A stretch of 64,000 nucleotides of DNA from a virus (IMGVR_UViG_3300013901_000014:14875-78874); one strand, 5' to 3'. Numbered from the stretch's first letter, positions 1 to 47,915 are shown. Program-made: numbers and translations. Notes: generated by a model not told the origin, from the letters alone.

Positions 1-3000
1 TTGAACGGCATTGTGAACGCCAAGTTGGCCGAGGAGAAGGGCAAAGGCGGTGAAGGCAGGAAGAAGGACTATGTGAAGATAGTGTTGTACACCGAGGACG
101 GGCGGACGTGGAAATACGGTGTTGTGCTGGATGACAAATATGCGCCCAAGAAGACTTCGACCGGCTCCATGCCGTTCTACCTTGGTGACGGCTTCGGCAC
201 GCGGAAGGAGGCGCAGGCATTTGTGGATAAGCACCGCGAGGAGTGGGACGCCAAAATAGCAGACATAGAGAAGGCGCGCCGCGACTTTGTGTATTTCAAA
301 GGCACCGGCGAGCGCACCGGCCAGGACTGGCGCAAGGGTGCTGACGTGAGTGCGGAGCAACTGATGGAGCAGTTCGGCTTCCGCGGCGTGCAGTTTGGCA
401 ACTGGACCAACCAGCGCGACCGGCAGGCTGCGGTGAACGGTGCCTTTGACGCCCTTATGGACTTGGCGCAGATATTGGGAGTGTCGCCGCGCGCGCTGAG
501 CCTGAACGGCGAGCTTGGCCTTGCGTTCGGCTCGCGCGGCGGCGGCAGCGCGAAGGCCCACTACGAGCCGGACGAGGTGGTGATTAACCTCACCAAGACA
601 CAGGGGGCGGGCTCGCTGGCCCACGAGTGGTGGCATGCGCTGGACAACTACTTCGCGCGCCACGGCAACGTGAAGGGCGGCATGGTGACCGAGTCGAAGG
701 GCATAGCGATGCGCGACGAGCTGCGGGAGGCGTTCAACGCCCTCATCGACAGCGTGGCGGGCAGCGACTACAACATCCGCTCGCGCCAGCGCGGCGCCAG
801 CTATTGGGGCCGGCCCGCTGAGGAGACCGCGAGGCTGTTTGCCGCGTGGGTGAGCGACGAGCTGCAGAAGCGCGGCTTGTCGAGTCCGTTCCTTTCTGAC
901 ACCGACCCCGGTGCTGCCGAGCGGTATGCCGAGATGATGTATCGCTTATACAAGGCGATGTATGAGAGTCGCAAGGCGGAGACCGGCGGCAAGGCGATGA
1001 CTTTTGAGGAGTTCAAGAAGACGCCGCTGGCTCTGAGCGGGTTTGTGTTTCCCGGCACGGAGGAGCTTGCGGCATTCGGCGGGCATCTGCGAAACATCTT
1101 CAACACAGTTCAGGAGAAGGTGGACGGGCAGACCGGCAAGACGCTGCTGTATCACCGCGGTCCGGTGGTGGCCGAGCCCAACGAGGCCGAGCAGGCTCTG
1201 CTGGAGGCGGTGAACGGTGTGCTGAAGGACACCGGCATCGAGGTGGTGACCGACACGGACGAGGGCCAGAAAGTGCTGGACGCGGCCAACGGGAATGATG
1301 TCAAGCTGGAGGCGAGCCACAGAAGCGGGGAAGCGGAGGAGCGCAACAAGATGTGGCGCCTCATAGACCGCGCAACGGCCATGTTTACAGGCAAAACAGA
1401 GAAGGAGGCGCGTGAGGCCCGCCGCAAGGAGATGCAAAAAATCACTGCTGAGAGGAAAGAAATGTACGACAGGGTTTTGTCGGGAAACTTCGATGAAGTA
1501 ACTTTGCGGCAGATAGACAACTACATCGATAATTTCTCACCCTACAACAATGAATGGAGACCAATTTCTAAACGACTTCCACAGAAGGCACTACGAGGCT
1601 TGCGAAAAGGAGAACGCGCGAGTGCGGTCGATGTACTTTTCTCACGAATATCTGAAAGCGCAGTCCCAAAGAATGAACGAGCTGGTGCAGAAGGAAAGAG
1701 AAGAATTGAGGAGAAAAAGAAAGAACTCCTCAAAAAGTGGGCAATAGCCACCGGCAACTGGCACACAAGTGTGTCGGACTTCACCGATGCCAAAGAGCCG
1801 CTTGGCAGCGGAAAAGACTCTGACGTATACCAGTCCAAAGACGGAAAGCACGTAATCAAAGTGTCGAAAGGCAAGGACGGCCTTAAGAAGTTCCGCCCCG
1901 ACATTGATGCTGTAACGCTGTTCAACTACATATTCCCTGAAAGTAGATACGAGATTCTGGGCTATGGCGAGGTTGACGGCAAGTTCGTGAAGTTCCTCAA
2001 GCAGCCAGTAGTGGACTTCACCGGCAGCAAACCGCTGTCGGCGGAGGAGCGTGTCGCCTATATGGCCGACATGGGCTTCAAGCCCGTCAACAAGGAGAAG
2101 ACCGCTTTCAGCAACGGCACTATCGTGGTTGCCGACCTGCAGGGCAACAACATCGTCAGAGACAAGTCGGGCAACATCCGCGTGATTGACGCAGACGTGA
2201 AGCTGCACACCAAGGACTTTGGCGGGCAGTACAGCTATCCGCCCGTTGAGGCCGACACCGCCCTGCCTCAAGCCAACAACGGCGGCAATGAAAAGCCGCG
2301 CATGCAGAAGGTGTACCACGGCAGTGGGGCGGACTTCGACGAGTTCGACAACTCGCACATGGGCGAGGGCGAAGGCGCGCAGGCATACGGCTGGGGCACA
2401 TACGTGACCGAGGTTGAGGGAATTGGCCGGACTTATGCGAAAGCGACTGCCCGTTATGATGACAACTCGTCGGAGGAAGTGCTGAATAGGGTCGAATCTT
2501 TGGCCGCAGATTTGATTAAAGACCGCTTCGGCTTTAGGCCGGGGCTTAGCGTTTCGGCCCGCGGTGACAACTACGACTTGGAAATTCCATCGGACAAAAA
2601 GACACTGGAGCAGATTAAATCATATTTCGACGAGTATCCGTATATGTGGAATGCGAAAGTCGACAGGGAATTGAGTTCGTTCAATCTGGACGATGCCGCT
2701 TCAAGAAGAGAGTTTGCCAACTGGGTTTATGAAATTGTTGAGCCGTTTGCGGCGGACGCCGTAGGCTATGCGCAGAAAGAAGAGACCGCCTCCCGCCACC
2801 TCTATACTGTTGAAATTCCCGATGACAACGGCGAGAACTATATTGATTATAATGGCAGGATAAGCGACATTCCATCACAGAAAATAGATGCAATATGCAC
2901 GGAGCTTGAAAAACTCGGATGGAAACGTAAGGACTTGCCGAGCATGGTAAGGCTCACGGATGGCTATGGCAATATAGTACTTAATCCCAATGCTGCGGGA

Positions 3001-6000
3001 GCAGACCTCTACGAGGAGATTAAGGTTGCGTTGAAGAGTCAGAAACTGGCGAGCGAACTGCTGTCAAGAGCCGGCTTTGCCGGCATAAAATACCCTGCTG
3101 AGTATATGAGCGGCGGGCGCAAGGACGGCGCCAAGAACTATGTGATTTTCAACGAGAAGGACGCAAGGATAACCGACCACGTGCGGTTTTTCCGCACGTC
3201 CGGCGGCGAGGCCTACGGCTTCACGGTGGGCGGCAAGATATACGTGGACCCGCGCATAGCCACTGCCGACACGCCGATACACGAGTACGCCCACCTGTGG
3301 GGCGACATGATGCGCCGCGTCAACCCCAAGGCGTGGGGCGACATCGTGCGCCTGATGAAGGGCAAGGGCGGCCTTTGGGACTGGGTGAAGAAGAACTACC
3401 CGGAGCTGGAGACCGACGACGAGGTGGCCGACGAGGTGCTGGCGCAGTTCTCGGGCAAGCGCGGAGCCGAGCGGCTGCGCGAGGAGATGCGCAAGACTGC
3501 CGAGGGCAGCGGCAGCATAACCGAAAAGGCCAAAGCCATAAGCGCGCTGCAGCGGGTGAAGGAGGCCCTTGGCAGGTTTTGGCGCGGAGTGGCCGAGCTG
3601 CTGCACATACGCTTCACCACGGCCGAGGAGGTGGCCGACCGCGTGATGGCCGACCTGCTGCACGGCGTGGACCCGCGCAAGGTCTCTAACGACAACAGAT
3701 ACAACGAGTTTGCCGAAAAACACAAAGTAGACGCAAACGAGGTGAAGGACTATGCCACTGCCATTAAGGATGGCAACCTGATGGCCGCCAATAGGGCATT
3801 AAGTGAAATTCGCCGCACTTTGCGAGTGGCGCACAGGGAAATGAACCTGCAAGAGTTCGGCAAATTCTTTCGGCCAATAAATCAAGAACTGGCAGAGCGG
3901 TTCGGCGATATTGAAAAATTGCGTCAAGAACACATTGCAGCTGCAGAGCGAGAGCACAACGCTATGGAGGCTGCACGCAAGAAAGCCGAAGAGGAGGAAG
4001 CAAAGAAGAGGAAGCGTCAGGAAGAATTGTCAATGCTCACTGCCGACGAGATAGACAAACGCTATGCGGAAGCCCTTGAAAGAGGCGACGAGGCGGCGGC
4101 AAGAGAGATGCTTGACGAGGCTGCACGCCGCAATGGATATGGCGACACGGAGAGCGACTACCAGGGCGTGGGCGCATGGGTGGCCCCTTCCAACCCAGGC
4201 TATGAGAGTGATGAGGCGCGACGCGCCGATGTTGAGGACAATGCGCCTGACGTGAATTTGGAGGACATGGCGTTAGGGTACAACCTACAGCCGGATGACT
4301 ATTTTACGCACCCGGAGCGTTACTCACAGGACACGCCGCACGGACGGGAGTCGACGCAAGCCATACACGCCGCACTCGAAGCGCTGAAGAGAGGCGACAA
4401 GGATGTGAAGGTGAAGGTGTACAGAGCCGTGCCGACATCGGTGAAAGAGGGAAGTCTGAGAAACGGCGACTGGGTGACCCCATCGAGAAAGTATGCCGAG
4501 ATGCACGGAAAGAGCAGGCTGGAAGGCAAATACCGCATCATAGAAGACGAAGTCCCGGCCAAAGACCTTTGGTGGGACGGCAACGATGCCAACGAGTTCG
4601 GATATGATGACGGCAGGGGGTACAAGTACAAGAACACCAAGAACAACAGAAAGCTGAACGACTTGGTGACGCGCGATGATGACGGCAACATCATTCCACC
4701 GTCAAAGCGTTTTAACGAGCGTGAGCAAGATGTGCGCTATTCGCTGCGCCACGTGTTTGGCGGCAACAGCGGCTATGTGGGCTACTCGATGAGCAAGCGC
4801 GCGGCGCAGGCGCGTGAGGACGGACGCTATCCGAAAACCGACTTCCGGAAGGAGTACAGCGTGACGCCGAAGACCTTTGACGCGCTTGTGGACGCTGGCG
4901 TGATTGACAGCGGCGAGTGGCACCACACCAGCATGTATGGCAACAAGACTCCGTTCTACGGGTGGAAGCCCATGTATGACGCAGTGTATGCCGCCAACAA
5001 AAAGGAAGTTGACAAGATGGCGCGGACCCTCAAGATGCAGCAGACTGAGGCTGAGTTTTCGGACTACCTTGACAACGACAACCCTTACCGCTACCGTCCC
5101 ACTTCGGAGGAGTACCAGAAGAAGATGGGCGATATAGACCGGCAAGAGAGTCATGCCGCCAGAGACATAAACCTGATGTATGACGATGCCTACAACCCTG
5201 AGACCGAGCGGAAGAGGATGCAAGAGCTTCAATCGCTACGCGAAAAGAGCGGCAAACTTAAAGACGAGGTGCGCCGCCAATACCCCGAGGACGCAGCGAT
5301 AGAGGCCGAAAACAGGAAAGGTGTCGACTGGCACGTTGAGCAGATTGAGAAGCGCAACAAGGAGAGAGAAGCCCTAAGGCAGAAATTCCATGATTACTTT
5401 GACGCGAAGCGCGACGAGCTCGTGTACGATGAGATGGAAAAGGCTGGCATACTCACTATGGGCGCGGACGGCCCGCATTGGAGCAAGCCTAAATATGCAG
5501 AGATATTCAACCATTATAAAGACGCGGCCATTGACACCATCGCAGAGGCAATGGCTGAAAGGCTGAAGAACCCCTACGACGAGGACTATGCCGAAGGGAT
5601 TTCCGAATACCGGAAAGACCTGCAAAAGGTCAAGGCTGACAAATGGGCTGAAGGCAACGCCTTGAATGCAAAGTATAGGGACAAGGAGTTCCGAAAGCAA
5701 CACCCTGACTACTACAAGCGAGAAAAAATGCTTGAAGAGGAAAAAGAGCGGCTCAGAGAGAAGTATGAGGCTCTTGAGGAAGATGTGCTCAAGCGTCACC
5801 CGGAGGAGTTGGAACGTAGGCAGAAAGCGTTTGAGTGGCCATCTGATGAGGAGGCGCAGCAACAAGCCCGAGAGAAACTACTTGCCGAACGCTTGCAACA
5901 GTTCTTTGAGGAAGACACCGCCGACCCGGACGAGGGGAAGAAGTTTCGTCTGCTGGACGATGACGACCCGCAGGCTCAGGAGCTGTCGCTGCCCGAAGGC

Positions 6001-9000
6001 GAGCCCAAGGAGACGCTTGCGCAGGCCATGGTGCGCCGCGTGAAGGAGCTGGCGGCGAAGCTTGGCGCGAAGGTGCGCATCGTCACCAGCGCCGATGATC
6101 TGCCCAAGACTCCGGGCAGCCGCCAGCGCAGGATGAAGGGCATGTATGACACCCGGACGGGCGAGGTGACAATAGTGATTGGCAACCACGAGAACCTTGC
6201 CGACGTGGAGAACACGGTGCTTCACGAGGCTGTGGGGCACAGGGGCTTTCGCGTGCTGTTTGACACCAAGGAGAAGTTCGACCACGCCATGGACGAGCTG
6301 TACCGCGTGTCGGGCGGGAAAATCAGGAAGTGGATAGACGACAAAGTGCGCAAGCTGTATGACGACGAGGTGGACCGCATAATGGAGCGCAAGCGCAAGG
6401 AGCGCCGCGCCAGGGGCGAGGGCCCGAGCGAGCACCATTTGGAGGACATGGCCGCGGCCGCCATCGAGGCGAGCAAGAAGAAGGACCAGTTCCGCCGCGA
6501 GGCCACCGAGGAATACGGCGCCCGCCTGGCTGGCCGCATAGGCGAGAAGGGCTTTGAGAAGCTGAGCGCGGAGGAGCAGACCTTCTGGGGCAGACTGAAG
6601 TCGATGCTGCAGAAGGCGCTGCAGCGATTGGCCGAGGGGCTGAACATCACCGGCAGGCACGAGTGGACCGACAAGGACTGGGCCTACGTGCTGCACGAGG
6701 CTTACAAGCGCGAGAAGAACGGCGGCAAGCCGAGCATCTTTGACGAGGCCGACACCATAGCCATGCGCATGCGCACCGGCTTCGGCGAGGGCAAAGAGGA
6801 AGGCCGCAAGATGACCACCCTATCAGGGGAAGAGGCCAAGCAGGCTCTTAATGAGATTTTCAGCGCGGAGTCACATACGGTCAAGCCAGAGAAGATTTCG
6901 TCTCTTGCAAAGTTTAGGGATATATTCAGTAAGCCGATACGCACGTTTTTGGGTGAAGTTATAAAGGTCAAGGATGCCGTGTGGAACAAGGTCCTCCGCG
7001 AAAACCGACAGAACATTTCCGGTGCAATACTGCCCACTTTGCAAAATGCGGACTTCGCCATCCGTGATACGGACGGAAGCATACTGTATGTGAAGCGGTT
7101 CTTGAACAGTACGGGAGAATCCACCTATAACGTGGCGGTTGTAAACAAACATGGCGAACTGGAGGACTACATCAGTTCTGTTCACATAAAAACAAATAAC
7201 AACCTGCTGAACAAAATAGGAAAAGGTGCCGAACTGCTAATACCGGAAAACCGGAATGGCTATGGGCACGAAGTCCCAAGCAGTTCAACACCCGATGCAA
7301 AGATAGACATAGAAAACGAAAGCGGCAACACTTTCGGCTCGAATAAGTACAAAAAATCTTCTGATGAGAACCCGGACGAGGGCATGATGTTCCGCGACGG
7401 TGACGATGACGACATTGGCGATGTGGACCTTGGCGACGCTGTGGACAAGATGCGCGATGCGGCAGTGGAGAGCAACGCCAACAACCTGCAGGCCAAGCGC
7501 GAGGCGATGAAGGCCATAGGCGGCAACCTGAGCAAGCTGCGTCAGGCTATGTCGCGGCAGAAGGTGTATGACAAGGGCACTGTGAAGAGCGTGACCGACA
7601 TGGCGCGCGAGATGCTGCAAAACGGCATGCTTGACAAGCTGAGCGGCTACGAGGCCAAGCGCATACTCTCGGCCGCGGCCAACGTGACGGGCGCGGAGAA
7701 CACGGCCAGACAGATTAACAAGCTGATGGACGTGATGGTGGACAACCAGCTGCGCAACGCCGGCGACACATTCGGCAAGCTGCTGCACTCCAAGGGCACG
7801 CGCGTGAACGCAAGCGGCGTGGAGGTGCAGGGCAAGCTCGACCCCGACGGCGCGGCCATAGTGGACGCCCTGAAGAAAGGCGTGCAGCTTGACAAGGAGG
7901 AGCTGAACGGGCGCATCGGCAAAGCGCTTGACAAAATCGGCAGCGAGGACAAGGTCATTGCCGACCAGGCCGCCAACGAGCTGGCCGGCCTGCAGCTGGC
8001 GTCCCGCTACGTGGAGGACATCAAGGGCAGCAAAGCCGAAGAGACAGAACTGCGCGAGAGCCTGAAAGAGGCCAAGGCGCAGAAAGACGCCGGCAAGATG
8101 AGCGCGGAGGCCTACAAGCAGTATTGCGAAGCCACCGAAGATGCCATACGACAGAACAAGATAGAGCGTGCCGACGCCTACCGACAGCTGATTGCACAGC
8201 TTGGCGGAGTGATGGGAGAAAGCGCAGAGCGCGCCAAAGCGTGGCGGGAGGCCGAAAAGCAGCGGGTGCAGGACATTCAGCACAACGCCAACTCGGACAT
8301 GCAGGGCAGGCCGTGTAACGAGCACCACAAACCATCATCACTACAGAAGTTGTGCAACAGCGACCTTATAAGGGGTCTCTTGATGCCACTTGCGACCTTT
8401 GAGCAGATGCTGCGAATGTTCGGCAACAAGAACGTGCACGGTGAGGGCTATCTGTGGAACCGCTTTGTGCGCGGCTGGCTCCGTGCTTCGGAAAACGAAT
8501 ACAGCGGTTACCGCGACGCGCTGAAAGAACTTGACGACAAAGTGAGCGAGATATTCGGCAAGAAGATGCGCTGGGGCGACATATTCAGCCTTGAGCGCAA
8601 GCTGCCCACCATGGAGGTGAAGTTTTGGGACGGCGGAGAGATGAAGCCGCACACGCTGACGCAGGGCAACCTTGCATACATCTACATGGTGGACAAGATG
8701 AGCGACGGGCGCATGAAGCTGCGCGCGATGGGCATCACCGAAGGAGATGTGGAGCAAATCGCAAAAGCACTTGACCCGAAACTGAAGAAACTTGCCGACT
8801 GGATGCAGGACGAGTTCCTGGTGCAGAGGCGCAACAAGTACAACGAGGTGCACAAGCGCATGTTTGGGGCATCGATGGCCGCCATTGAGAACTACTTCCC
8901 GCTGAAGATACTCTCGGGTGCACGCACGGAGAACGTGGATGTGGCGGACGATACCGGTGAGCCTACAATGACATCCACCACCACTGGCAGCATTGTCAAG

Positions 9001-10965
9001 CGCCGCCGCAACAACCTTGCGCTCGACATCACCAATGCAGACGCATTCTCGGTAATTCTTGAGCATTTGCAAGACATGGAGCACTGGGCCGCATACTCAG
9101 AGTTTAACCGCGACCTGAACACGCTGCTATCATACAGGCGGTTCAAGAACCAGGTGATGAACATGAGCAGCGCATACGGAGCCGGTGCAACACTGTGGAA
9201 AAACTTCCGCAATGTGTGCCAGCTGGCGGCTGGTTCATACCGCCCGCCGGTGGCGACACTTGACAAGACAATGGTAAACCTCGCCAAAGGCGTGACCGCT
9301 GCAAAGATTAGCTTCAGAATATTCACCGCCATCAAGCAGTTGCTTTCGTTCCCCGCTTATCTGCCTGACGCGAGCGCAAGGTATCTGCTTCAGAACCTTG
9401 CGAACCCAGTGGGCGCATGGAAATGGAGCATAGAGAACCTGCCGCTATTCCACAAACGATGGAACAGCCGCATGGCAGGCGACCCGCGACTGCTTAAAAC
9501 TGAAATGGACTGGAAGATGTGGCGCAGCCGCGTGGTGCAAATGGCGTCAAAATACGGCATGAGCCCCAACGCATTTGTGGATGCGGTTACCGTGGCAATG
9601 GGTGCGCACGCCATCTACAAGACCAAACTCGCCAAGTACCTCAAGCAGGGCTATGACAAGGACAAGGCCGAAGAGAAGGCGCGCCAAGACGCGGAGATTG
9701 CATACAACCAGACACAGCAGTCAAGCGAAGGTGCGTTCTTGTCGACAATGCAGGCCGACAGAACGTGGGGCAGCGTGCTGTTCACAGTGTTCCGCAACTC
9801 GGCAATGTCGTACACACGTCAGGAGTATGACGCGCTGCGCAACCTTGCGCGCAAGTTGACCACGAAGGGGTACAAGGAAAAGAGCATTGGGTTTATGGCA
9901 AAGCAGATGGTGCGTGACGGCCTTGACGAAAACACCGCATGGAGGAATGCAAAGCGCACATACAGCCGCTCAATATGGCGCGAGTTTGTGCGGGTGGCCA
10001 CGTTCGGCTACATATTGCAGCTTGCGTGGAACCTTGGCGCATACTTGCCGTATCTGTTGCTCGGAGACAACGACGACGACAAGAAGAAGATGCTCGAAGA
10101 CGCAGGACTTCACGCACTTGTTGGCAGCGTGGAGGGCTTGACTGGCGGTGACGTGCTGAGCACAGCCGGCCAGTATGCACTCACGGGCGAGGGCACTATT
10201 GGCAACTTAAAGAAGGAAATGCCACTTACCTCAGACTTGCATGCAATCTACCAGAGCTTCGACTACGATGCAGTGCAAGCCACCAACGACGTGCTGAATT
10301 TGCTTGTGCAGGCAGGCGTGGGCGTTAACCCGCAATCGCTGACCGATGCCGTGGTGGGCGTGATGGACTACTGCGAAAACAACCCGGCAGACGCGCGTGA
10401 GTGCGCATTGCTGATAGCGCGCATATTCAACACTCCGCAGAGCCAGCTCGACAAGATTTATTTCGACGAGATAGACCTTGACGGCAGCGACGCACGCAAA
10501 TTGTCGCCCAAGCAGATTGCCGAGCGCTACGCAAAATACAAACTAAGACGTAACACACCGCTCACTGCTTGGATGTATGGCGAGGACGGCAGAAAGGAGC
10601 GTGTCGCCAAGTATAAAAAAGCAGCCAACGATGTGGCAAAGGAAAGACTTTCGGCGTTGACCGACAGCCGCAGCGGTGAGGACTTCACAGACTGGCGCAA
10701 TGAGTACAAGCAGACATCTGAAGGTTGGGGCCGCATAAACGGGCTGAAGGATACAGACCCCGACCAATATGCGGCAGAAAGGAAGCAAATCGCGGGAACA
10801 CCGGCCGACACACGCTACCGCATAGAGAACCGCTACAAAGCACGCATCAACAAACTGACCGATGCGTGGCTTAAGGCCAAAACACCAGCAAGGCGGATGA
10901 AACTCGCCGATGCGATGGTTGCCCTGAAAAAGGACGAAGCCAAGCATCTTGCAGCGGGTAAGTAG
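1..10965 (+). CDS. Large polyvalent protein (5' truncated), probable virion-ejected protein
   Basis: 3654-aa open frame. LPD1-like zincin (FGFRGVQFGNW...HEWWH, nt ~367-640), polyvalent kinase (LGSGKDSDVY, VIK, DLQGNNI, VIDAD; ~1800-2200), ART-like (VYHGSGADFDEFD...YGWGTY; ~2310-3180), HEYAH (~3280) and HEAVGH (~6223) metallopeptidase motifs, second ART-like (VYRAVP...GDWVT; ~4415-4620), PBECR-like nuclease (~6900-7230), long helical C-terminal part. Confidence 0.9.
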   Translation: MNGIVNAKLAEEKGKGGEGRKKDYVKIVLYTEDGRTWKYGVVLDDKYAPKKTSTGSMPFYLGDGFGTRKEAQAFVDKHREEWDAKIADIEKARRDFVYFKGTGERTGQDWRKGADVSAEQLMEQFGFRGVQFGNWTNQRDRQAAVNGAFDALMDLAQILGVSPRALSLNGELGLAFGSRGGGSAKAHYEPDEVVINLTKTQGAGSLAHEWWHALDNYFARHGNVKGGMVTESKGIAMRDELREAFNALIDSVAGSDYNIRSRQRGASYWGRPAEETARLFAAWVSDELQKRGLSSPFLSDTDPGAAERYAEMMYRLYKAMYESRKAETGGKAMTFEEFKKTPLALSGFVFPGTEELAAFGGHLRNIFNTVQEKVDGQTGKTLLYHRGPVVAEPNEAEQALLEAVNGVLKDTGIEVVTDTDEGQKVLDAANGNDVKLEASHRSGEAEERNKMWRLIDRATAMFTGKTEKEAREARRKEMQKITAERKEMYDRVLSGNFDEVTLRQIDNYIDNFSPYNNEWRPISKRLPQKALRGLRKGERASAVDVLFSRISESAVPKNERAGAEGKRRIEEKKKELLKKWAIATGNWHTSVSDFTDAKEPLGSGKDSDVYQSKDGKHVIKVSKGKDGLKKFRPDIDAVTLFNYIFPESRYEILGYGEVDGKFVKFLKQPVVDFTGSKPLSAEERVAYMADMGFKPVNKEKTAFSNGTIVVADLQGNNIVRDKSGNIRVIDADVKLHTKDFGGQYSYPPVEADTALPQANNGGNEKPRMQKVYHGSGADFDEFDNSHMGEGEGAQAYGWGTYVTEVEGIGRTYAKATARYDDNSSEEVLNRVESLAADLIKDRFGFRPGLSVSARGDNYDLEIPSDKKTLEQIKSYFDEYPYMWNAKVDRELSSFNLDDAASRREFANWVYEIVEPFAADAVGYAQKEETASRHLYTVEIPDDNGENYIDYNGRISDIPSQKIDAICTELEKLGWKRKDLPSMVRLTDGYGNIVLNPNAAGADLYEEIKVALKSQKLASELLSRAGFAGIKYPAEYMSGGRKDGAKNYVIFNEKDARITDHVRFFRTSGGEAYGFTVGGKIYVDPRIATADTPIHEYAHLWGDMMRRVNPKAWGDIVRLMKGKGGLWDWVKKNYPELETDDEVADEVLAQFSGKRGAERLREEMRKTAEGSGSITEKAKAISALQRVKEALGRFWRGVAELLHIRFTTAEEVADRVMADLLHGVDPRKVSNDNRYNEFAEKHKVDANEVKDYATAIKDGNLMAANRALSEIRRTLRVAHREMNLQEFGKFFRPINQELAERFGDIEKLRQEHIAAAEREHNAMEAARKKAEEEEAKKRKRQEELSMLTADEIDKRYAEALERGDEAAAREMLDEAARRNGYGDTESDYQGVGAWVAPSNPGYESDEARRADVEDNAPDVNLEDMALGYNLQPDDYFTHPERYSQDTPHGRESTQAIHAALEALKRGDKDVKVKVYRAVPTSVKEGSLRNGDWVTPSRKYAEMHGKSRLEGKYRIIEDEVPAKDLWWDGNDANEFGYDDGRGYKYKNTKNNRKLNDLVTRDDDGNIIPPSKRFNEREQDVRYSLRHVFGGNSGYVGYSMSKRAAQAREDGRYPKTDFRKEYSVTPKTFDALVDAGVIDSGEWHHTSMYGNKTPFYGWKPMYDAVYAANKKEVDKMARTLKMQQTEAEFSDYLDNDNPYRYRPTSEEYQKKMGDIDRQESHAARDINLMYDDAYNPETERKRMQELQSLREKSGKLKDEVRRQYPEDAAIEAENRKGVDWHVEQIEKRNKEREALRQKFHDYFDAKRDELVYDEMEKAGILTMGADGPHWSKPKYAEIFNHYKDAAIDTIAEAMAERLKNPYDEDYAEGISEYRKDLQKVKADKWAEGNALNAKYRDKEFRKQHPDYYKREKMLEEEKERLREKYEALEEDVLKRHPEELERRQKAFEWPSDEEAQQQAREKLLAERLQQFFEEDTADPDEGKKFRLLDDDDPQAQELSLPEGEPKETLAQAMVRRVKELAAKLGAKVRIVTSADDLPKTPGSRQRRMKGMYDTRTGEVTIVIGNHENLADVENTVLHEAVGHRGFRVLFDTKEKFDHAMDELYRVSGGKIRKWIDDKVRKLYDDEVDRIMERKRKERRARGEGPSEHHLEDMAAAAIEASKKKDQFRREATEEYGARLAGRIGEKGFEKLSAEEQTFWGRLKSMLQKALQRLAEGLNITGRHEWTDKDWAYVLHEAYKREKNGGKPSIFDEADTIAMRMRTGFGEGKEEGRKMTTLSGEEAKQALNEIFSAESHTVKPEKISSLAKFRDIFSKPIRTFLGEVIKVKDAVWNKVLRENRQNISGAILPTLQNADFAIRDTDGSILYVKRFLNSTGESTYNVAVVNKHGELEDYISSVHIKTNNNLLNKIGKGAELLIPENRNGYGHEVPSSSTPDAKIDIENESGNTFGSNKYKKSSDENPDEGMMFRDGDDDDIGDVDLGDAVDKMRDAAVESNANNLQAKREAMKAIGGNLSKLRQAMSRQKVYDKGTVKSVTDMAREMLQNGMLDKLSGYEAKRILSAAANVTGAENTARQINKLMDVMVDNQLRNAGDTFGKLLHSKGTRVNASGVEVQGKLDPDGAAIVDALKKGVQLDKEELNGRIGKALDKIGSEDKVIADQAANELAGLQLASRYVEDIKGSKAEETELRESLKEAKAQKDAGKMSAEAYKQYCEATEDAIRQNKIERADAYRQLIAQLGGVMGESAERAKAWREAEKQRVQDIQHNANSDMQGRPCNEHHKPSSLQKLCNSDLIRGLLMPLATFEQMLRMFGNKNVHGEGYLWNRFVRGWLRASENEYSGYRDALKELDDKVSEIFGKKMRWGDIFSLERKLPTMEVKFWDGGEMKPHTLTQGNLAYIYMVDKMSDGRMKLRAMGITEGDVEQIAKALDPKLKKLADWMQDEFLVQRRNKYNEVHKRMFGASMAAIENYFPLKILSGARTENVDVADDTGEPTMTSTTTGSIVKRRRNNLALDITNADAFSVILEHLQDMEHWAAYSEFNRDLNTLLSYRRFKNQVMNMSSAYGAGATLWKNFRNVCQLAAGSYRPPVATLDKTMVNLAKGVTAAKISFRIFTAIKQLLSFPAYLPDASARYLLQNLANPVGAWKWSIENLPLFHKRWNSRMAGDPRLLKTEMDWKMWRSRVVQMASKYGMSPNAFVDAVTVAMGAHAIYKTKLAKYLKQGYDKDKAEEKARQDAEIAYNQTQQSSEGAFLSTMQADRTWGSVLFTVFRNSAMSYTRQEYDALRNLARKLTTKGYKEKSIGFMAKQMVRDGLDENTAWRNAKRTYSRSIWREFVRVATFGYILQLAWNLGAYLPYLLLGDNDDDKKKMLEDAGLHALVGSVEGLTGGDVLSTAGQYALTGEGTIGNLKKEMPLTSDLHAIYQSFDYDAVQATNDVLNLLVQAGVGVNPQSLTDAVVGVMDYCENNPADARECALLIARIFNTPQSQLDKIYFDEIDLDGSDARKLSPKQIAERYAKYKLRRNTPLTAWMYGEDGRKERVAKYKKAANDVAKERLSALTDSRSGEDFTDWRNEYKQTSEGWGRINGLKDTDPDQYAAERKQIAGTPADTRYRIENRYKARINKLTDAWLKAKTPARRMKLADAMVALKKDEAKHLAAGK
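1476..1506 (+). promoter_or_regulatory. Internal Bacteroidetes sigma-A promoter inside the polyvalent ORF
   Basis: TTTG (1476-1479), 19-nt spacer, TAACTTTG (1499-1506) = exact TTTG-N19-21-TAnnTTTG consensus. Confidence 0.7.
1550..1747 (+). CDS. Nested out-of-frame 65-aa ORF, candidate antitoxin of the downstream kinase domain
   Basis: ATG ~40 nt after a consensus promoter, A at -3 and -6, helical charged peptide; ends immediately before kinase motif I. Confidence 0.55.
   Translation: MNGDQFLNDFHRRHYEACEKENARVRSMYFSHEYLKAQSQRMNELVQKEREELRRKRKNSSKSGQ
7212..7292 (-). ncRNA. Candidate antisense three-way-junction RNA at the end of the PBECR-like domain
   Basis: 14-bp outer stem 7279-7292/7225-7238 (two G-U pairs only on minus strand), inner hairpins 7263-7278 and 7243-7254, U-tract at 7221-7224. 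Confidence 0.55.
7298..7328 (-). promoter_or_regulatory. Antisense promoter inside the polyvalent ORF
   Basis: CAAAGATA at 7298-7305 = TATCTTTG on minus; TTG element 20 nt upstream (7326-7328). Confidence 0.6.
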
Positions 10966-10987
10966 CAGCAAGTAAGTAGTTAAACAG

Positions 10988-11031
10988 AGAGTGGGTGCAA
11001 TAATGACTAATATTGCACCCACACTGTTTTT
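10988..11031 (+). terminator. Hairpin/intrinsic terminator between polyvalent gene and portal
   Basis: GTGGGTGCAATA (10991-11002) / TATTGCACCCAC (11011-11022) perfect 12-bp stem followed by TTTTT. Confidence 0.6.
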
Positions 11032-11039
11032 GCATACTT

Positions 11040-27173: not shown

Positions 27174-27256
27174 GCTATATAAAAGATGAGCCGCGGCAAT
27201 GAAGCCACGGCCCAAAGGTGTTATAAGAGCAAAAAATAATTGCTTGTACAAAGATA
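27168..27256 (-). ncRNA. Candidate minus-strand rod-shaped RNA with own -7 box, directly downstream of int
   Basis: CAAAGATA 27249-27256 (TATCTTTG on minus); 9-bp IR 27168-27176/27228-27236; inner 10-bp stem with two minus-strand G-U pairs. Confidence 0.4.
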
Positions 27257-27284
27257 GCACGAAGAACTGACAGCGGCAAATCAT

Positions 27285-31889: not shown

Positions 31890-31982
31890 TGCCCGCGCCG
31901 GGAGGTGGAGCCCATGGCCAATGGCCGGGGTAAGTCAGGCAGCGGCCTGGCGGGTGCGGTTCGACTCCGCGCATGGGCACAC
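31890..31982 (+). ncRNA. tRNA-like element 2 (acceptor stem + T arm)
   Basis: TGCCCG/TGGGCA stem, GTGCGG-TTCGACT-CCGCGC T arm, ends GGCACA. Confidence 0.6.
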
Positions 31983-36500: not shown

Positions 36501-36513
36501 CCCAATAAACGAT

Positions 36514-36705
36514 ATGGAATACAACGAATTATGCGACCTATGCAACAGGCTGAAGAACGACATCAAGCAGCTCAGCGATTACGTGTTCGAGCTGCGCGAG
36601 GATAACGAGAGCGACACGCTACGCTCCATCAGTGATTATGACCTGATTGCAGAACTTGAAGACCGCGGCTATGACGTGGTTAAACACAAGGAGGACGAGC
36701 AATGA
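36514..36705 (+). CDS. Hypothetical protein
   Basis: ATG 36514, ISDYDLIAELEDRGY motif, ATGA overlap with next gene. Confidence 0.65.
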   Translation: MEYNELCDLCNRLKNDIKQLSDYVFELREDNESDTLRSISDYDLIAELEDRGYDVVKHKEDEQ

Positions 36706-38338: not shown

Positions 38339-38370
38339 GCTGAACAGCTGATAGAAAACTGAAATATCTA

Positions 38371-38402
38371 TTTGTGTTGCAAATATATTTTGTGTAACTT
38401 TG
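38371..38402 (+). promoter_or_regulatory. Putative late promoter
   Basis: TTTG 38371-38374, 20-nt spacer, TAACTTTG 38395-38402. Confidence 0.75.
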
Positions 38403-38511
38403 CCCAAAGGGCACGCACATTATGAGACCCTGGCGTACGCGGGCTCTTGGACATCTGCCTCCAAGGGCCCGCAAACGCTTATGATACAAACAAATCAATC
38501 CGCACACAGAT

Positions 38512-40687: not shown

Positions 40688-40702
40688 CTAACGACAACGG
40701 CG

Positions 40703-42139: not shown

Positions 42140-42172
42140 CACCGATTTTCACTTTTTACGCACATTAGACAC

Positions 42173-43561: not shown

Positions 43562-43851
43562 TGATGAGAAGGAGCACAAACAACCGCAAGCCGATAGGCG
43601 CCGTCCCCGCCCGGCAGGAGGCACCTGTCCGCCATTGCTGGGATTGCGATCTCGTGGCTGACACCTATGGCGTGAACCGGGCGGGCGCTCCGATCCTTTG
43701 CCAATGCCCGCATGGGGGCAAGCACTATCACTTTTTGTCCGATACCGCCTGTGCGCATTTTAGGGCCGCAGACGCAACCAAGCAACAGCAACAGACAGCA
43801 CATGACCGAGGAGGAAAGACGCGCGCAGCGGGCGCGCATTGCAGCGATTGA
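43558..43851 (+). CDS. Small Cys-rich protein
   Basis: CWDC...CQCP...C motif; fills gap between portal and MuF. Confidence 0.5.
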   Translation: MMMRRSTNNRKPIGAVPARQEAPVRHCWDCDLVADTYGVNRAGAPILCQCPHGGKHYHFLSDTACAHFRAADATKQQQQTAHDRGGKTRAAGAHCSD

Positions 43852-46156
43852 GCGCAAGTATAACCAAACCCATCTGCGCAACCTCGCGCAATATCAGGCG
43901 GAGATTACGCGCATATTCGAGGACGTGGCCCAGGAGGCCGCGCGCCTCGGCGTGACCCTTGACGCCCCCGGTGGGCGGATGCTTTCCTTCAACGACCTGC
44001 CCGCTGCCAAGCGCCGCGTCAACGCCATGCTTAAGGCCATGCGCAAGCGGCTGGAGGCGGCGGTGGTCAACGGCATAGACGCGGAGTGGGCGCTCGCCAA
44101 CGGCAAGAACGATGCCGTCGTCGAGCAGATAGCGGCTGCGGGGCTGACGAAGGGCGACACGAAGGTCTACTTCAACAGCCACGCTGCCGCCCTCAAGGCG
44201 TTCAAGGCACGCAAGACGGCGGGCATAGGGCTGAGCCGCCGCGTGTGGAACCTTACGCAGCAGTACAAGAGCGAGCTCGAGATGGCGCTCGACTGCGGCA
44301 TCCGCGACGGGCTGTCGGCACAGGAGATGGCCCGGCAGCTGAAGCAGTACCTGAATTATCCCGACAAGCTGTTCAGGCGGGTGAGGGACGAGCACGGGGT
44401 GCTCCAGCTGAGCAAGGCGGCTGCGGCGTTCCACCCGGGCCGCGGCGTGTACCGCAGCAGCCACAAGAATGCGCTGCGTCTGGCCGGCACCGAGACGAAC
44501 ATCGCCTACCGCACGGCCGACCACGAGCGCGTCCAGGCCCTCGATTTCGTCCTCGGCATAAAAATCGTACTGAGCAACAACCACACCATCCGCAACAGCA
44601 AGGGCCAGCGGGTGCCGCTGACCGACATCTGCGACGAGCTGGCGGGCAGCTACCCCAAGGGCTTCAAGTTCACGGGGTGGCATCCGAACTGCCGCTGCCA
44701 TACCGAGACAATCCTCCTGAGCGGTGCGGACTTCGAGAACTTCATCAAGGCCAAGCGCGAGGGGCGGGCCTACGACATCACCAAGGCCAGGGGCTACGTG
44801 GCCGAGCCACCCGCGGCATTCAAGGCCTGGGTGAAGGGCAACGCGGGGCGCATTGCCGCAGCGGCCAAGGCGGGCACCACGCCCTACTTCATCAAGGACA
44901 ACCAGGGGGCCGTGGACGCGCTGCTCGGCCAGTCCAAGGCGGCATCGAAGCCCGCGGCGTCGACCCAACCCGCACAGGTTGCAAAGGAGCCAACCGAGAT
45001 TGAGGCATTGGCCAAGAGGCTGGGCATCGAGGCAGGCGAGCCGATGACGCATGAGCAGGCAAACACCATGAGGCCGAACCCCCACTTCCAGGAGGATGAG
45101 CAATATCAAATCAACTGCCAAAGCGCGGTCGTGACATACGAGCTGCGCCGCCGCGGCCTGGATATTGAGGCGTTCGGAAATCCGGGCTCACCGGATTACG
45201 CACCCAGATGGCTGTCATACAACACGCGCGCCGCATGGCTTACGGACGATGGCAAGCTCCCCGAATGGATATATCGCGTGAGAGAAGTGAAGGGGTGGAC
45301 CGCGGACAAACTTGGACGGGCGCGGCGCACATACGAGAAGCCCGATGAGGTATGGCTGGACTTCGCAGATAAGACTAAGGCGCCGGGGCGCTATCACATC
45401 AGCTGGACCTGGAAAAATGAAAGAGCGGGTCACATAATAACGATGGAAGTCAGCGAGAAAGGCCGCCGAAGTTTTTATGACCCGCAGACGGGCCAAAACT
45501 CAAGGACCATCATCACGTGGCTCATGGATGGCCGCAAATGCCGGATTGACCTGGACAAAGGCATCTGGGGCTACCGGGTAGACAACGCCCACCCGAATGC
45601 CGAGATTGTAAGGGGCGTTGTCAAGAAGGCGGGGTCGAAGGCGAAGACGCCAAAGATCAGCGCCGAGGCGAAGGACGCATTCCTCAAGCTCCAAAACGGG
45701 AAGAACTGGACGCAGGCGGGGGCAACATCGCAAGTTGGGGCAGGAAGGGATCCGGGTATATTTCAGAAACAAAAAGAGGTCAGAAAAGACAGAAGCAAAT
45801 TTGTGACTTCTGTATTAAAAGATTGTCCAGGTACAAAAACGGGTAAACTTTGGCATAATGGCCAGTCAAGAAAAGCCGTTATCGCACATTTGCGCCACGA
45901 GGAGGAAATCCCCGCGGCGGAATATGCGTGGAGCAATCCGCAAGAGCTGCATTTCGTCAAAAAAAGTCCATTAGGAGAGGGAAAAGACATGTCGACAGAG
46001 AAAGCGCAAAATAACATTGCACGAAAAACAGCACGCGGGGTGCAATATTATAACTTGTACGAATTTGAGTTCAACGGGAAAACATGGCACATGAAAATGG
46101 AGGTCATACAAAAAGGGGCGGCTCTTTTTGAGCAGTTTTACAGTTTAGTCCCATAG
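43802..46156 (+). CDS. MuF-like minor head protein with papain-fold toxin domain and C-terminal BECR/LPD3-like domain
   Basis: WHPNCRCHTE (MuF); NCQSAVVTYELRRRG...GHII...YDPQTG (Cys-His-Asp papain fold); AT-richer last ~150 aa with YNLYEFEF...MKME; ATG 43802. Confidence 0.85.
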   Translation: MTEEERRAQRARIAAIERKYNQTHLRNLAQYQAEITRIFEDVAQEAARLGVTLDAPGGRMLSFNDLPAAKRRVNAMLKAMRKRLEAAVVNGIDAEWALANGKNDAVVEQIAAAGLTKGDTKVYFNSHAAALKAFKARKTAGIGLSRRVWNLTQQYKSELEMALDCGIRDGLSAQEMARQLKQYLNYPDKLFRRVRDEHGVLQLSKAAAAFHPGRGVYRSSHKNALRLAGTETNIAYRTADHERVQALDFVLGIKIVLSNNHTIRNSKGQRVPLTDICDELAGSYPKGFKFTGWHPNCRCHTETILLSGADFENFIKAKREGRAYDITKARGYVAEPPAAFKAWVKGNAGRIAAAAKAGTTPYFIKDNQGAVDALLGQSKAASKPAASTQPAQVAKEPTEIEALAKRLGIEAGEPMTHEQANTMRPNPHFQEDEQYQINCQSAVVTYELRRRGLDIEAFGNPGSPDYAPRWLSYNTRAAWLTDDGKLPEWIYRVREVKGWTADKLGRARRTYEKPDEVWLDFADKTKAPGRYHISWTWKNERAGHIITMEVSEKGRRSFYDPQTGQNSRTIITWLMDGRKCRIDLDKGIWGYRVDNAHPNAEIVRGVVKKAGSKAKTPKISAEAKDAFLKLQNGKNWTQAGATSQVGAGRDPGIFQKQKEVRKDRSKFVTSVLKDCPGTKTGKLWHNGQSRKAVIAHLRHEEEIPAAEYAWSNPQELHFVKKSPLGEGKDMSTEKAQNNIARKTARGVQYYNLYEFEFNGKTWHMKMEVIQKGAALFEQFYSLVP

Positions 46157-46158
46157 GC

Positions 46159-46227
46159 ATAAAAAATCCCAGTCCCTGCCCACTTAAGAGCCGGCGCGTT
46201 CATACCCACGCCTTGCGACTGAGATTC
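46159..46227 (-). ncRNA. Candidate antisense three-way-junction RNA after the MuF toxin gene
   Basis: 10-bp outer stem 46217-46226/46165-46174 (G-U only on minus), two inner hairpins, U-tract 46161-46166. Confidence 0.6.
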
Positions 46228-46233
46228 TCAGTG

Positions 46234-46241
46234 CAAAAGTA
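46234..46241 (-). promoter_or_regulatory. -7 box of antisense promoter
   Basis: CAAAAGTA = TACTTTTG on minus, 7 nt from the start of the structured element. Confidence 0.6.
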
Positions 46242-46286
46242 GTACTTTTTTTCGACCCACGAAACAATCAGTATCAAAAAAAGTAT

Positions 46287-46294
46287 TAAATTTG
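46287..46294 (+). promoter_or_regulatory. -7 box for a two-gene moron
   Basis: TAAATTTG 33 nt before ATG 46327. Confidence 0.55.
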
Positions 46295-46326
46295 CCCTGC
46301 TATAAAACATTTAACAACATTTTGGC

Positions 46327-46473
46327 ATGGAAGATTTTAAGAACAAAGTGGCGGAGCTGGCCGAAATCCTGCTCCAGATGAAATGGGCGTATCCCAACGG
46401 GTATCAACAGCTGCTGCGTGAGGCCCAAAGGCTTTTCGAGGAATTGTCCGACCCCAGCGGCTGGGAGGAGTAA
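46327..46473 (+). CDS. 48-aa protein (AYPNGYQQLL motif)
   Basis: Translated by hand: MEDFKNKVAELAEILLQMKWAYPNGYQQLLREAQRLFEELSDPSGWEE; not in ORF track. Confidence 0.65.
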   Translation: MEDFKNKVAELAEILLQMKWAYPNGYQQLLREAQRLFEELSDPSGWEE

Positions 46474-46499
46474 AGCCACCACGAACACGGCAAACAAAA

Positions 46500-46727
46500 A
46501 TGGAAGAAGAAAAAACAATCATGCGCGAGCGCCTGGAGGATTTAAGGCTCGCAATTTCATGGCGCGACATTGCAAACCGATATTTTAGCAAATCGGCCTC
46601 CTGGCTGTACCACAAGCTCGACGGCATCGATAGCAAAGGCGGTTTTACCGAGGAGGAGGCGGAGCAGCTGAAGCGCGCGCTTTACGACCTTTCGGACCGG
46701 ATAAGAGCCGCCGCCGATAAGATATGA
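46500..46727 (+). CDS. DUF5053-like HTH protein
   Basis: ISWRDIANRYFSKSASWLYHKLDGID...FTEEEAEQLKRALYDLSDRI. Confidence 0.8.
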   Translation: MEEEKTIMRERLEDLRLAISWRDIANRYFSKSASWLYHKLDGIDSKGGFTEEEAEQLKRALYDLSDRIRAAADKI

Positions 46728-46768
46728 CAACATCGCCCACCGGTGGGCAAAATAAAAAAAAACACATT

Positions 46769-47185
46769 ATGAGAAAAATCAGAGAAATCATCGTCCACTG
46801 CTCGGCCACACCCGAGGGCAAGGACTTCACCACGGCCGACATCGACCGCTGGCACAAGGCCCGCGGCTTCCGCTGCATCGGCTACCATTATGTGATTTAC
46901 AGAGACGGCAGCGTCCACCGCGGCCGCCCGGAGGCCGATGTCGGCGCGCATTGCACCGGGCACAACGCCGCGAGCATCGGCGTTTGCTACATAGGCGGCT
47001 GCGCGGCCGACGGCAGGACACCGAAGGACACCAGGACGGCAGCCCAGAAGGCCGCGCTGCTGAAACTCCTCACCGAACTCAAGCACCGCTATCCGTTAGC
47101 AACGATCCACGGGCACCGCGACTTCGCGGCCAAGGCCTGCCCGAGCTTTGACGCCACAACCGAGTATCGCTGCATAAAGGCATGA
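46769..47185 (+). CDS. N-acetylmuramoyl-L-alanine amidase endolysin (T7 lysozyme-like)
   Basis: IIVHCSAT, IGYHYVI, GAHCTGHN, HGHRDF...KACP; ATG 46769. Confidence 0.93.
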   Translation: MRKIREIIVHCSATPEGKDFTTADIDRWHKARGFRCIGYHYVIYRDGSVHRGRPEADVGAHCTGHNAASIGVCYIGGCAADGRTPKDTRTAAQKAALLKLLTELKHRYPLATIHGHRDFAAKACPSFDATTEYRCIKA

Positions 47186-47676
47186 AGAAGACAATGATTG
47201 CGGCCGTGATTGCCGCGGCCTGGGCCGGATGGTGGCTGGCCGAACGGAGGGCGGCCAGCCAAGGCGAAACCCTCGTGCGCGTTGACACCATCACACGCAC
47301 CGACACGATTATCGCCCGCGCCCCCGCGGCGCGCGGATGCACGCTGGTGAGATACATCACCGTGCGGGCGCCCGCAGTGCGCGGGGACACCGCCACAGGC
47401 GCCCACGAGGCTACGGGGGACACCGCCGAGGTGGCCCTGCCGATAACGCAGCTGCGCTACACCGACGACAGCACCTACACGGCGTGGGTGAGCGGCTACC
47501 AGCCGCGGCTCGACAGCATACGCACCTACAGGCGCACGGCCACCATCACGCGTGAAATCACGCGCCAGGCACCGCGCAGCCGCTGGGGCCTCGGCGTGCA
47601 AGCCGGCTACGGCCTGACCCCGCACGGGTTCCAGCCGTATATCGGTCTGGGTATAAATTATCGAATCGGAAAATAA
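47182..47676 (+). CDS. Rz/spanin-like envelope protein
   Basis: N-terminal hydrophobic anchor, VDTITRTDT repeats, C-terminal WGLGVQAGYG...YIGLGINY beta strands; follows endolysin. Confidence 0.65.
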   Translation: MKKTMIAAVIAAAWAGWWLAERRAASQGETLVRVDTITRTDTIIARAPAARGCTLVRYITVRAPAVRGDTATGAHEATGDTAEVALPITQLRYTDDSTYTAWVSGYQPRLDSIRTYRRTATITREITRQAPRSRWGLGVQAGYGLTPHGFQPYIGLGINYRIGK

Positions 47677-47687
47677 AAAAGAGAAAA

Positions 47688-47915
47688 ATGAAGCAGAAAT
47701 ATTTGCAAGAAGCAAAAAAGATGGCCCGGAATTTGGGCTATCACGACGCGGTGCGCCGCGGCACCTGGAACGGCTACGAAGTGGTCGCTCCGGTATTCAC
47801 CGACAACGAGATGCACATCATCGGCCTGCCGCAATACATCCTTTACAAGGACGGCAAGCTGAACTGGACCAAAGGCATGGAGGGGCTCAAAATCATGAGT
47901 GCGCTGATGGGTTAA
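47688..47915 (+). CDS. Small protein, candidate immunity protein for the papain-fold toxin
   Basis: GTWNGYEVVAPVF...GLPQYILYKDG resembles small genes seen beside papain-toxin MuF genes (recall, unverified). Confidence 0.55.
   Translation: MKQKYLQEAKKMARNLGYHDAVRRGTWNGYEVVAPVFTDNEMHIIGLPQYILYKDGKLNWTKGMEGLKIMSALMG

Follow-up and report, generated by a model that had tools for sequence, protein, structure and literature searches.

Polyvalent and MuF proteins are thought to be weapons that phages inject, which raises the question of how the producing cell or the lysogen tolerates them. To our knowledge, only protein immunity genes have so far been offered as an explanation of tolerance, and only for some MuF toxins have they been demonstrated or proposed. 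The stretch of DNA analysed here (the window) comprises 64,000 nucleotides, bases 14875-78874 of the 78.9-kb IMG/VR virus entry IMGVR_UViG_3300013901_000014. The window holds two phage genomes in tandem, prophages of gut bacteria, and its nearest relatives are metagenome-assembled genomes of Muribaculaceae and other Bacteroidales. A first, sequence-only reading had described four toxin-like modules, each with an adjacent small unit: a kinase with a nested out-of-frame open reading frame (ORF), a PBECR-like nuclease with an antisense structured RNA, the C-terminal nuclease-like domain of a MuF protein with a second RNA, and a papain-fold toxin with a small candidate immunity gene. All four features were found again where this reading had placed them, and for three of the four, comparison with relatives gives strong signs of function: judged from their conservation, these small units appear to be selected and separately promoted.

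Two of the units lie in a giant ORF of the first phage. Within the window, it is a single open frame (1..10965, +) representing the 3' two-thirds of a polyvalent virion protein gene; it runs past the left edge, and the whole ORF comprises 6123 codons (~18 kb), from L035:7468 to window position 10965 (L numbers designate the loci compared). Because Kinase-PolyVal (Pfam E 5.6e-36), LPD1 and LPD5 were detected in the part inside the window and MuF_C (E 2.2e-8) in the part upstream of it (L035), we regard the product as a polyvalent protein in the sense of Iyer et al. 2017 (PMC5512222). The proteins described there are likewise encoded by giant virion-associated ORFs made of Kinase-PolyVal, LPD and MuF_C/PBECR-type modules that are shuffled between relatives; here, in contrast, modules hold embedded genes of their own, and the words 'promoter' and 'antisense' are absent from the text of that paper. 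BLASTP detected no similarity between the two polyvalent copies.

The nested gene (1550..1747, +) has an ATG and encodes a 65-aa protein in the +1 frame of the polyvalent ORF. It is preceded by an internal Bacteroidetes-type promoter (1476..1506, +), with the -33 TTTG at 1476-1479, a spacer of N19 and the -7 element TAACTTTG at 1499-1506. The gene overlies a linker and reaches into the Pfam match to Kinase-PolyVal (PF18762; 1711..2208, +; aa 571-736) by no more than ~12 codons, and its stop codon lies ~50 nt before the glycine loop of the kinase, which corresponds to an antitoxin-then-toxin order. When the window was scanned with the Bacteroidetes sigma-A promoter pattern (-33 TTTG and -7 TAnnTTTG separated by N17-21), the full pattern was found four times against 0.30 expected, a count reached in 0/100 shuffles; the three matches other than that of the nested gene are intergenic.

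Twenty-five homologous loci with 62-97% protein identity were compared, the 17 gap-free ones being used for the frame test. The +1 frame is open from the ATG to a common stop in 17/17 of these, while the third frame has 3-8 stops in each, and the whole nested protein aligns without stops in nine further loci. Under synonymous codon reshuffling, the probability that the +1 frame stays open was 0.003-0.13 per sequence; 15/15 were observed open. Synonymous codon identity of the main frame, counted at identical residues, reaches 0.83-0.86 exactly over 1540-1720, compared to 0.49-0.60 in the kinase domain, and is already 0.69-0.74 across the promoter. At codon positions 1/2/3, sequence pairs differ on average by.19/.11/.16 in the nested stretch versus.17/.13/.48 in the kinase; as the most variable position in the nested stretch is the third position of the alternative frame, both overlapping frames appear to be under selection. 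At the sequence level, the promoter elements are kept in homologues at a spacing of 19-21 nt, as expected for a Bacteroidetes sigma-A promoter. A TAnnTTTG box occupies the homologous site in each of the ~32 related loci, orphan copies (see below) included, and is encoded by the rare codons GTA ACT TTG (Val-Thr-Leu) in 16/17 homologues; the exception, GTA ATT TTG, still fits TAnnTTTG. Promoter, nested ORF and kinase form one conservation block (~1400-2215), on both sides of which identity drops to ~20%. The nested stretch hence displays what is expected of an overprinted gene, a frame kept open with its start and suppressed synonymous variation, and these data indicate that it is very probably a real, functional gene. 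The nested out-of-frame ORF with its own predicted promoter at 1476-1747 is upheld and is kept in the homologues. As in overprinted phage genes such as lambda Rz1 in Rz and those of phiX174, a second protein is encoded in an alternative frame at the expense of synonymous variation; unlike these, the nested gene is predicted to be transcribed separately from within an 18-kb ORF, and it also occurs as a free-standing gene.

The nested frame could instead be reached by +1 ribosomal frameshifting, yielding a truncated polyvalent protein with an alternative C-terminus. Such an arrangement is seen in L053, where the polyvalent part upstream shares its reading frame with the nested sequence and terminates at the stop codon of the latter, the kinase following in a separate frame. 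We do not take this locus as proof of a C-terminal extension: it is not decisive, being a single contig with a 1-nt frame change that may carry an indel. Frameshifting does not account for a promoter conserved in all loci, nor for an ATG within the short open stretch of every homologue; furthermore, in-frame stops precede the conserved part by 7-15 codons in several homologues, orphan copies keep the promoter and the ORF only, and free-standing family members exist. We therefore consider frameshifting very unlikely.

A profile built from 21 nested proteins retrieved a family of 42 clusters (at 50% identity), mostly of 54-118 aa, with the shared motif YLNDFHR.WNE.CMKE...SM.FS.EY.KAQS.R. No match for the nested protein was found in Pfam or PHROGs, and a PDB profile search with the family returned spurious apolipoprotein helices only. 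In three chromosomal loci, a unit of ~300 bp is present alone, with the nested ORF intact, the promoter kept and the kinase absent: between a MazG-like gene and dtd (L024), beside an HtrA-like protease gene (L036) and beside a GH127 gene (L038). Homology of these copies spans from just before the -33 element to the nested stop, and the main frame is broken in L024 and L038. By analogy, they resemble orphan immunity genes. The association with the kinase recurs in a solo 280-aa Kinase-PolyVal gene (L070:1441-2283, -), where an 80-aa alternative-frame ORF with a YINDFHR motif lies over the N-terminal extension. The second kinase copy of L016 has a -7 box at an equal distance and lacks an ORF of the nested family. 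The arrangement is reminiscent of HipBA, a type II kinase pair in which a small gene preceded by the promoter lies immediately upstream of, and slightly overlaps, a Ser/Thr-type kinase gene; it differs in that the small gene is overprinted on the N-terminal extension of the kinase and that the kinase belongs to a giant protein. No sequence relation to HipB or HipA was found. The tie of the nested gene to the kinase is weaker than the case for the gene itself.

Three observations concern individual loci of this family. In four independent contigs (L044-L047), the polyvalent gene is broken at identical positions into overlapping ORFs, with the nested ORF retained and the kinase truncated after 86 residues; the splits could be recurrent frameshifts or programmed recoding. 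L052:616-1011 is a tandem duplicate of a nested-family gene, and in L054:926-2267 a family member adjoins a SocA_Panacea (antitoxin-type) gene.

The second unit, RNA2, is an antisense structured small RNA (7205..7292, -) with a 14-bp closing stem, two inner hairpins and a U-tract. Its predicted promoter (7298..7331, -) consists of the -7 element TATCTTTG at 7305-7298 and a TTG ~20 nt upstream. RNA2 sits within coding sequence, at least 7 kb inside the ORF, where a BECR/PBECR-like domain (6820..7230, +; predicted RNase fold) of the polyvalent protein has its 3' end. The minus strand of 7212-7328 folds at -33.7 kcal/mol (z -3.4; 0/200 shuffles as good), the plus strand giving z -1.8. Seven sequences were compared, six homologues of the BECR-like domain having been found. 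Between 6904 and 7190 in this domain, synonymous codon identity amounts to 0.44-0.61, with a third-position variability of 0.5-0.65, and this also applies to homologues whose protein is 88-97% identical; over the RNA2 stretch (7216-7290), synonymous identity is 0.79-0.97 and third-position variability 0.18-0.23, with a protein identity of only 0.53-0.57. In the alignment, 94% of the cells are paired, four pairs are compensatory (C-G to U-A twice in the outer stem), and the covariation score exceeds that of 500/500 shuffles and of every slid control. The G-U pairs of the outer stem are specific to the minus strand, the plus strand giving A-C mismatches. The -7 box is retained as TATCTTTG or TAACTTTG in all seven sequences, within a full TTTG-N19/20-TAnnTTTG promoter in L027 and L029, and the U-tract is kept, the main frame encoding Asn-Lys-Ile-Lys-Lys/Asn-Gly there. 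BECR-like domain and RNA2 together form a conservation block (~6880-7305); here, as for the nested gene and RNA3a, conservation ends at the promoter of the unit. On this comparative evidence, RNA2 is highly likely to be a functional gene, nearly to the degree of the nested gene. Not every -7 box carries such an RNA, as the box TAAGTTTG at 5253-5260 (-) in the giant ORF, which serves as a negative control, has no structure behind it (z +0.3). Weak matches of an RNA2 covariance model (E 1-5) fall on other -7 boxes of the minus strand within polyvalent genes (L044:3186-3300, L016:895-1028 and L007:4920-5026, all -) and may represent further antisense units.

The antisense RNA predicted at 7212-7328 by the sequence-only reading was therefore substantiated; its assignment of the host domain as a PBECR-like nuclease has no Pfam support, with no match to PBECR or MuF_C families (PF18809-PF18819) in 6700-7230 at E values up to 10, and is backed by weaker evidence. 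The Atlas clusters nearest to this domain carry PBECR2, PBECR3 or MuF_C, with scores of 0.90-0.92, and the VIA-align list obtained with its AlphaFold2 (AF2) model (predicted local distance difference test, pLDDT, 73) is dominated by colicin E5/D, ParE, RelE, BrnT and CdiA-CT, at Z of only 3.8-4.6.

A further unit, RNA1, was found in the same giant ORF upstream of the window (L035:13200-13309, -), directly following the Pfam MuF_C domain (L035:12952-13189). It has a TAnnTTTG box (TATCTTTG) and a conserved stem structure. Its single-sequence fold is not significant (z -1.4), and it is kept in L018 and L038 at 81-84% nucleotide identity, in L038 behind a protein merely 41% identical. The box is present in all three sequences, and one compensatory and five one-sided pair changes were counted.

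The third and fourth units belong to the second phage and to a MuF-family virion protein of 814 aa (43712..46156, +) encoded after an SPP1-type portal gene. PHROGs assigned its N-terminal 463 aa (43712-45100) to head morphogenesis/minor head and Bxa families (phrog_35295, 2.3e-129; phrog_16625, 1.5e-79); Pfam Phage_Mu_F reaches only E 2.1. The protein has the MuF-next-to-portal arrangement of MuF polymorphic toxins. Two toxin-type domains follow. The internal one (45110..45493, +; aa 467-594) is a papain-fold glutamine deamidase (Gln_amidase, Pfam E 1.4e-9) whose Cys (NCQS), His (GHII) and Asp (YDPQ) are invariant across six homologues. The second (45833..46153, +) is a RelE/BECR-like C-terminal domain, hereafter type A CT, recognised by weak fold matches: its AF2 model is weak (pLDDT 54 overall, 63-89 in the core), and VIA-align gave Z values of 4.2-6.1, including BrnT (6.1), a Salmonella toxin-antitoxin (TA) toxin (5.5), MqsR (4.9), colicin D, HigB and RelE. 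No Pfam PBECR/MuF_C match at E up to 10 and no Atlas assignment were obtained for 45650-46153. For neither nuclease-like domain did PHROGs give a match or Foldseek a significant one, and BLASTP between the polyvalent and the MuF domains detected no similarity.

Behind the MuF gene lies RNA3a (46160..46229, -), an antisense structured small RNA with a 12-bp closing stem, two hairpins and a U-tract that ends ~5 nt from the MuF stop codon (46154-46156). Its -7 box, TACTTTTG (46234..46241, -), is present in all homologues. The minus strand of 46159-46241 folds at -33.6 kcal/mol (z -4.6; 0/200 shuffles). RNA3a is conserved in L030, L031, L041 and L059, the same loci that, like the window, encode MuF proteins with a type A CT. 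Five of the 27 predicted pairs vary one-sidedly and all stay paired, with G-U pairs on the minus strand only; in the peripheral outer helix, two pairs break, in one sequence each. In L031, the similarity to the window stops right at the RNA3a -7 box.

Other MuF proteins (L032, L055-58), ~80-90% identical in their N-terminal part, end in a different domain with a weak CdiA_C match (type B CT), that is, the C-terminus is variable on similar proteins, as described for MuF polymorphic toxins. Behind type B lies a different RNA, RNA3b (L032:3769-3860 and L055:3358-3452, -), with three hairpins, the last being a terminator with a U-tract; it folds with z -3.9, and stems are kept while loops have changed between L032 and L055. 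The same -7 box, GCAAA(A/G)GTAGTA, and a common backbone stand behind both CT/RNA types, the breakpoint being at the shared box. As CT type and RNA type change together at the same place, the exchanged cassette consists of toxin domain plus RNA. Such a joint swap, as judged from the sequences, is how toxin/immunity pairs are exchanged in polymorphic toxin loci. A protein immunity gene that lies directly downstream and co-varies with the toxin domain was not found, the co-varying element being the minus-strand RNA; nor was a protein ORF found in the 185-nt gap behind the MuF gene of L055-58. Conservation and fold make it likely that RNA3a is a functional gene, with somewhat less assurance than for RNA2. 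Of the earlier proposal for 46159-46241, the RNA was borne out and the nuclease-like domain went unrecognised by Pfam.

The sequence-only reading had also held that the RNAs at the two sites have the same architecture. They do share a size of ~70-85 nt and a layout, a stem enclosing inner hairpins and a U-tract, and show no detectable family relation: the RNA2 covariance model did not detect RNA1, RNA3a or RNA3b, and in an Rfam scan only a tRNA reached the gathering score, with nothing near threshold at the RNA2 or RNA3a sites. Scans of viral contigs with proteins and DNA patterns for the RNA regions and the small ORF gave nothing useful; one metagenome scan added two loci.

We asked whether the conserved stretches could be cis-acting signals instead of genes, for instance terminators, sites at which the long late mRNA is stabilised or processed, or hot-spots of recombination where modules meet. 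They do lie at the borders of shuffled modules, and stems with U/A tracts could act as bidirectional terminators. However, the G-U pairs and one-sided changes fit the minus strand only, a minus-strand TAnnTTTG box is kept at a fixed distance although the variable positions of the box change, a sense-strand terminator inside an 18-kb ORF would be harmful, and variability in the nested region shifts to third positions of the alternative frame, which is a coding-type signature. Cis-acting signals or hot-spots are thus improbable. Still less credible is a chance ORF with chance hairpins in an A-rich coding strand. Single-sequence statistics are indeed modest: 14-bp inverted repeats are not rare (14 pairs in 11 kb of ORF), and a 65-codon alternative-frame ORF stays open with a probability of 3-13%. 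But every comparative test opposes chance, which conservation effectively refutes; it is because the features are conserved in relatives, rather than because of single-sequence statistics, that we place them beyond chance.

The fourth unit is of the conventional kind. The 75-aa gene at 47688..47915 (+), a candidate protein immunity factor, has homologues 85-95% identical in L031 and L032 and six close database relatives, a narrow distribution; Pfam and PHROGs gave no match. It is syntenic in L032 and L055-60, where it precedes a homologue of the gene at 48013, and occurs with both CT types; in L031, its homologue follows the MuF gene and the RNA directly. In the window, it lies 1.5 kb from the deamidase domain, separated from it by a lysis cassette encoding a 48-aa ORF, DUF5053, Amidase_2 and DUF6808. 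This cassette is headed by its own plus-strand -7 box (46287-46294), divergent to the RNA3a box (46241-46234, -) with a short spacer between, and by the conserved 48-aa ORF (46327-46473, +); each related locus has the 48-aa ORF and/or ORF 47688. The papain-fold toxin with an adjacent small immunity gene, as first read from the sequence, was hence partly sustained: the gene is real, whereas it is not adjacent and the toxin is not a separate protein but a domain within the MuF protein. ORF 47688 is a conventional part of the picture because Bacteroidales MuF deamidases followed by small ORFs proposed as immunity proteins have been reported (PMC11699363). A role as immunity factor of the deamidase is loosely supported.

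What, then, do these units do? They may be cognate neutralisers kept physically linked to a toxin module and expressed from promoters of their own, in lysogens or producing cells, at a time when the giant late transcript is switched off or only beginning. The nested protein would bind or counteract the kinase, its gene coming antitoxin-first in the manner of type II pairs. The RNAs would act in one of two ways: by pairing with the complementary toxin mRNA, leading to decay or silencing as in type I systems and lambda OOP, or by folding and binding the RNase-like domain directly, as in type III systems. ORF 47688 would be the protein immunity factor of the deamidase domain, as proposed in PMC11699363. 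This toxin-antidote cassette idea fits because of the block conservation, the joint exchange of toxin domain and RNA, the orphan nested copies and the antitoxin-first order. The prediction that the units would be conserved beside homologous domains was borne out for the nested ORF, RNA1, RNA2 and RNA3a, and the earlier idea that whole cassettes were captured into giant ORFs finds its counterpart in co-inherited blocks, joint swaps and orphans. The three of 17 kinase loci and the free-standing relatives described below count against its generality. From the comparative data, neutralisation of the adjacent domain is a plausible job for the units, to which we give somewhat less than an even chance. 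The more specific picture, in which structured antisense RNAs, each under a promoter of its own, are cognate antidotes of BECR/CdiA-CT-type RNase domains, swapped along with the domain and, for internal domains, written within the coding sequence, an overprinted gene encodes a protein antidote and polyvalent genes are strings of cassettes, is more doubtful and is put forward tentatively.

Several findings weigh against an antidote function. Among 17 Kinase-PolyVal loci, a sample drawn from 401 Bacteroidales genomes, only 3 have the nested gene upstream; it is retained next to truncated kinases (L022/23, L044-47), and members of its family stand free without a nearby kinase (L049-51, L062-64). 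The remaining enzymatic modules of the giant protein yielded no such unit. That the BECR-like domains are toxins is suggested by weak fold matches (Z 4-6) and a language-model lead, and domains delivered with the virion may be non-toxic to the producer. RNA3a does not overlap the coding sequence, and antisense control would therefore have to work via the 3' untranslated region (UTR). The RNA alignments are modest (7, 4 and 3 sequences, from fewer independent lineages), and L030 is without ORF 47688 though its deamidase keeps Cys, His and Asp.

Antisense RNAs that control a convergent gene and combine a promoter, a stem and a U-tract, such as lambda OOP and P22 sar, are well known from phages. 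Such precedents count in favour of a different explanation, in which the units are real accessory genes or regulators, expressed early or during lysogeny and overprinted on dispensable linkers, without being antidotes: a small regulatory or exclusion protein, for example, and cis-antisense RNAs that time or silence late virion genes or act in trans on host mRNAs. The linkage to toxin domains would then reflect module shuffling at linkers, not function. The breadth of the nested family, often free-standing in clusters of small genes without kinases, agrees with this explanation, as do a nested gene that most Kinase-PolyVal domains lack and that outlives truncated kinases, and the position of RNA3a in a region of divergent promoters that serves the lysis cassette as well. 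It leaves unexplained that RNAs lie directly behind a BECR- or CdiA-CT-type domain four times in two phages (RNA1, RNA2, RNA3a and RNA3b); that CT and RNA types are swapped together, which a pure timing device does not predict; and that RNA structure is selected, with compensatory pairs, beyond the needs of simple cis-antisense pairing. We hold this account to be a serious contender, nearly as likely as the antidote reading.

If the antidote reading is followed, the units depart in several ways from the systems they most resemble. In MuF polymorphic toxins (Jamet et al. 2017, PMC5576092; Bxa of Bacteroidales, Alexei et al. 2024, PMC11699363), as here, a MuF head domain encoded after the portal gene carries exchangeable CTs, glutamine deamidase among them, and a small ORF further downstream is presumed to encode the immunity factor (47688, which in L031 follows directly); these papers agree with the premise of the earlier note that MuF toxins normally have protein immunity genes. 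The present protein differs in having two toxin-type domains, in that a minus-strand structured RNA and not a protein ORF swaps with the outermost CT, and in that the candidate immunity gene is displaced by a lysis cassette and absent in one relative. Type I TA systems (hok/sok), lambda OOP-cII and P22 sar resemble our RNAs in that a short, structured RNA with a promoter and a terminator of its own is encoded antisense to a gene that is harmful or needs tight control, and lambda OOP likewise overlaps the 3' end of its target. Overlap of this kind is seen for RNA2, within the ORF, while RNA3a is complementary to the 3' UTR only; in place of the small, usually hydrophobic peptide toxin of type I, the partner is a domain of a 6123-aa or 814-aa protein. 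In type III systems (ToxIN, AbiEi-like RNA antitoxins), a linked structured RNA neutralises an RNase toxin, as proposed here; the RNAs of the window differ in being single-copy without tandem repeats and on the opposite strand rather than upstream on the same strand, and the toxin fold is BECR/RelE-like rather than ToxN-like. Literature searches found no earlier account of polyvalent or MuF toxin genes that contain promoters, antisense RNAs or nested genes, in line with the earlier note, although this does not prove that none exists.

Giant virion genes can thus hide transcription units, a second-frame protein gene and antisense RNA genes, that escape gene callers and domain surveys. Should the RNAs be antidotes, they would be the first case of RNA immunity in a polymorphic toxin system and would explain MuF toxins without an immunity ORF; even if they are merely regulators, they would constitute a new class of conserved small RNAs of Bacteroidales phages, beside a new family of small proteins.

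The remaining features of the window are as follows. The first phage reaches to ~28.6 kb; its giant ORF is followed by a P22-type portal gene at 11013 and then by genes for an SU10-type capsid protein, a tail fibre and an integrase. In the second phage, the order is YqaJ recombinase, methylase, terminase, SPP1-type portal and the 814-aa MuF-type protein. The intergenic promoter matches lie at 27249-27280 (-) and, on both strands as a back-to-back pair upstream of the methylase gene, at 38371-38408. A 90-nt tRNA-Ile-like sequence with anticodon aat was called by ARAGORN only at 31891-31980, in the gap between both phages, and a tRNA-Met inside the second phage was identified by both Rfam and ARAGORN at 52690-52762.

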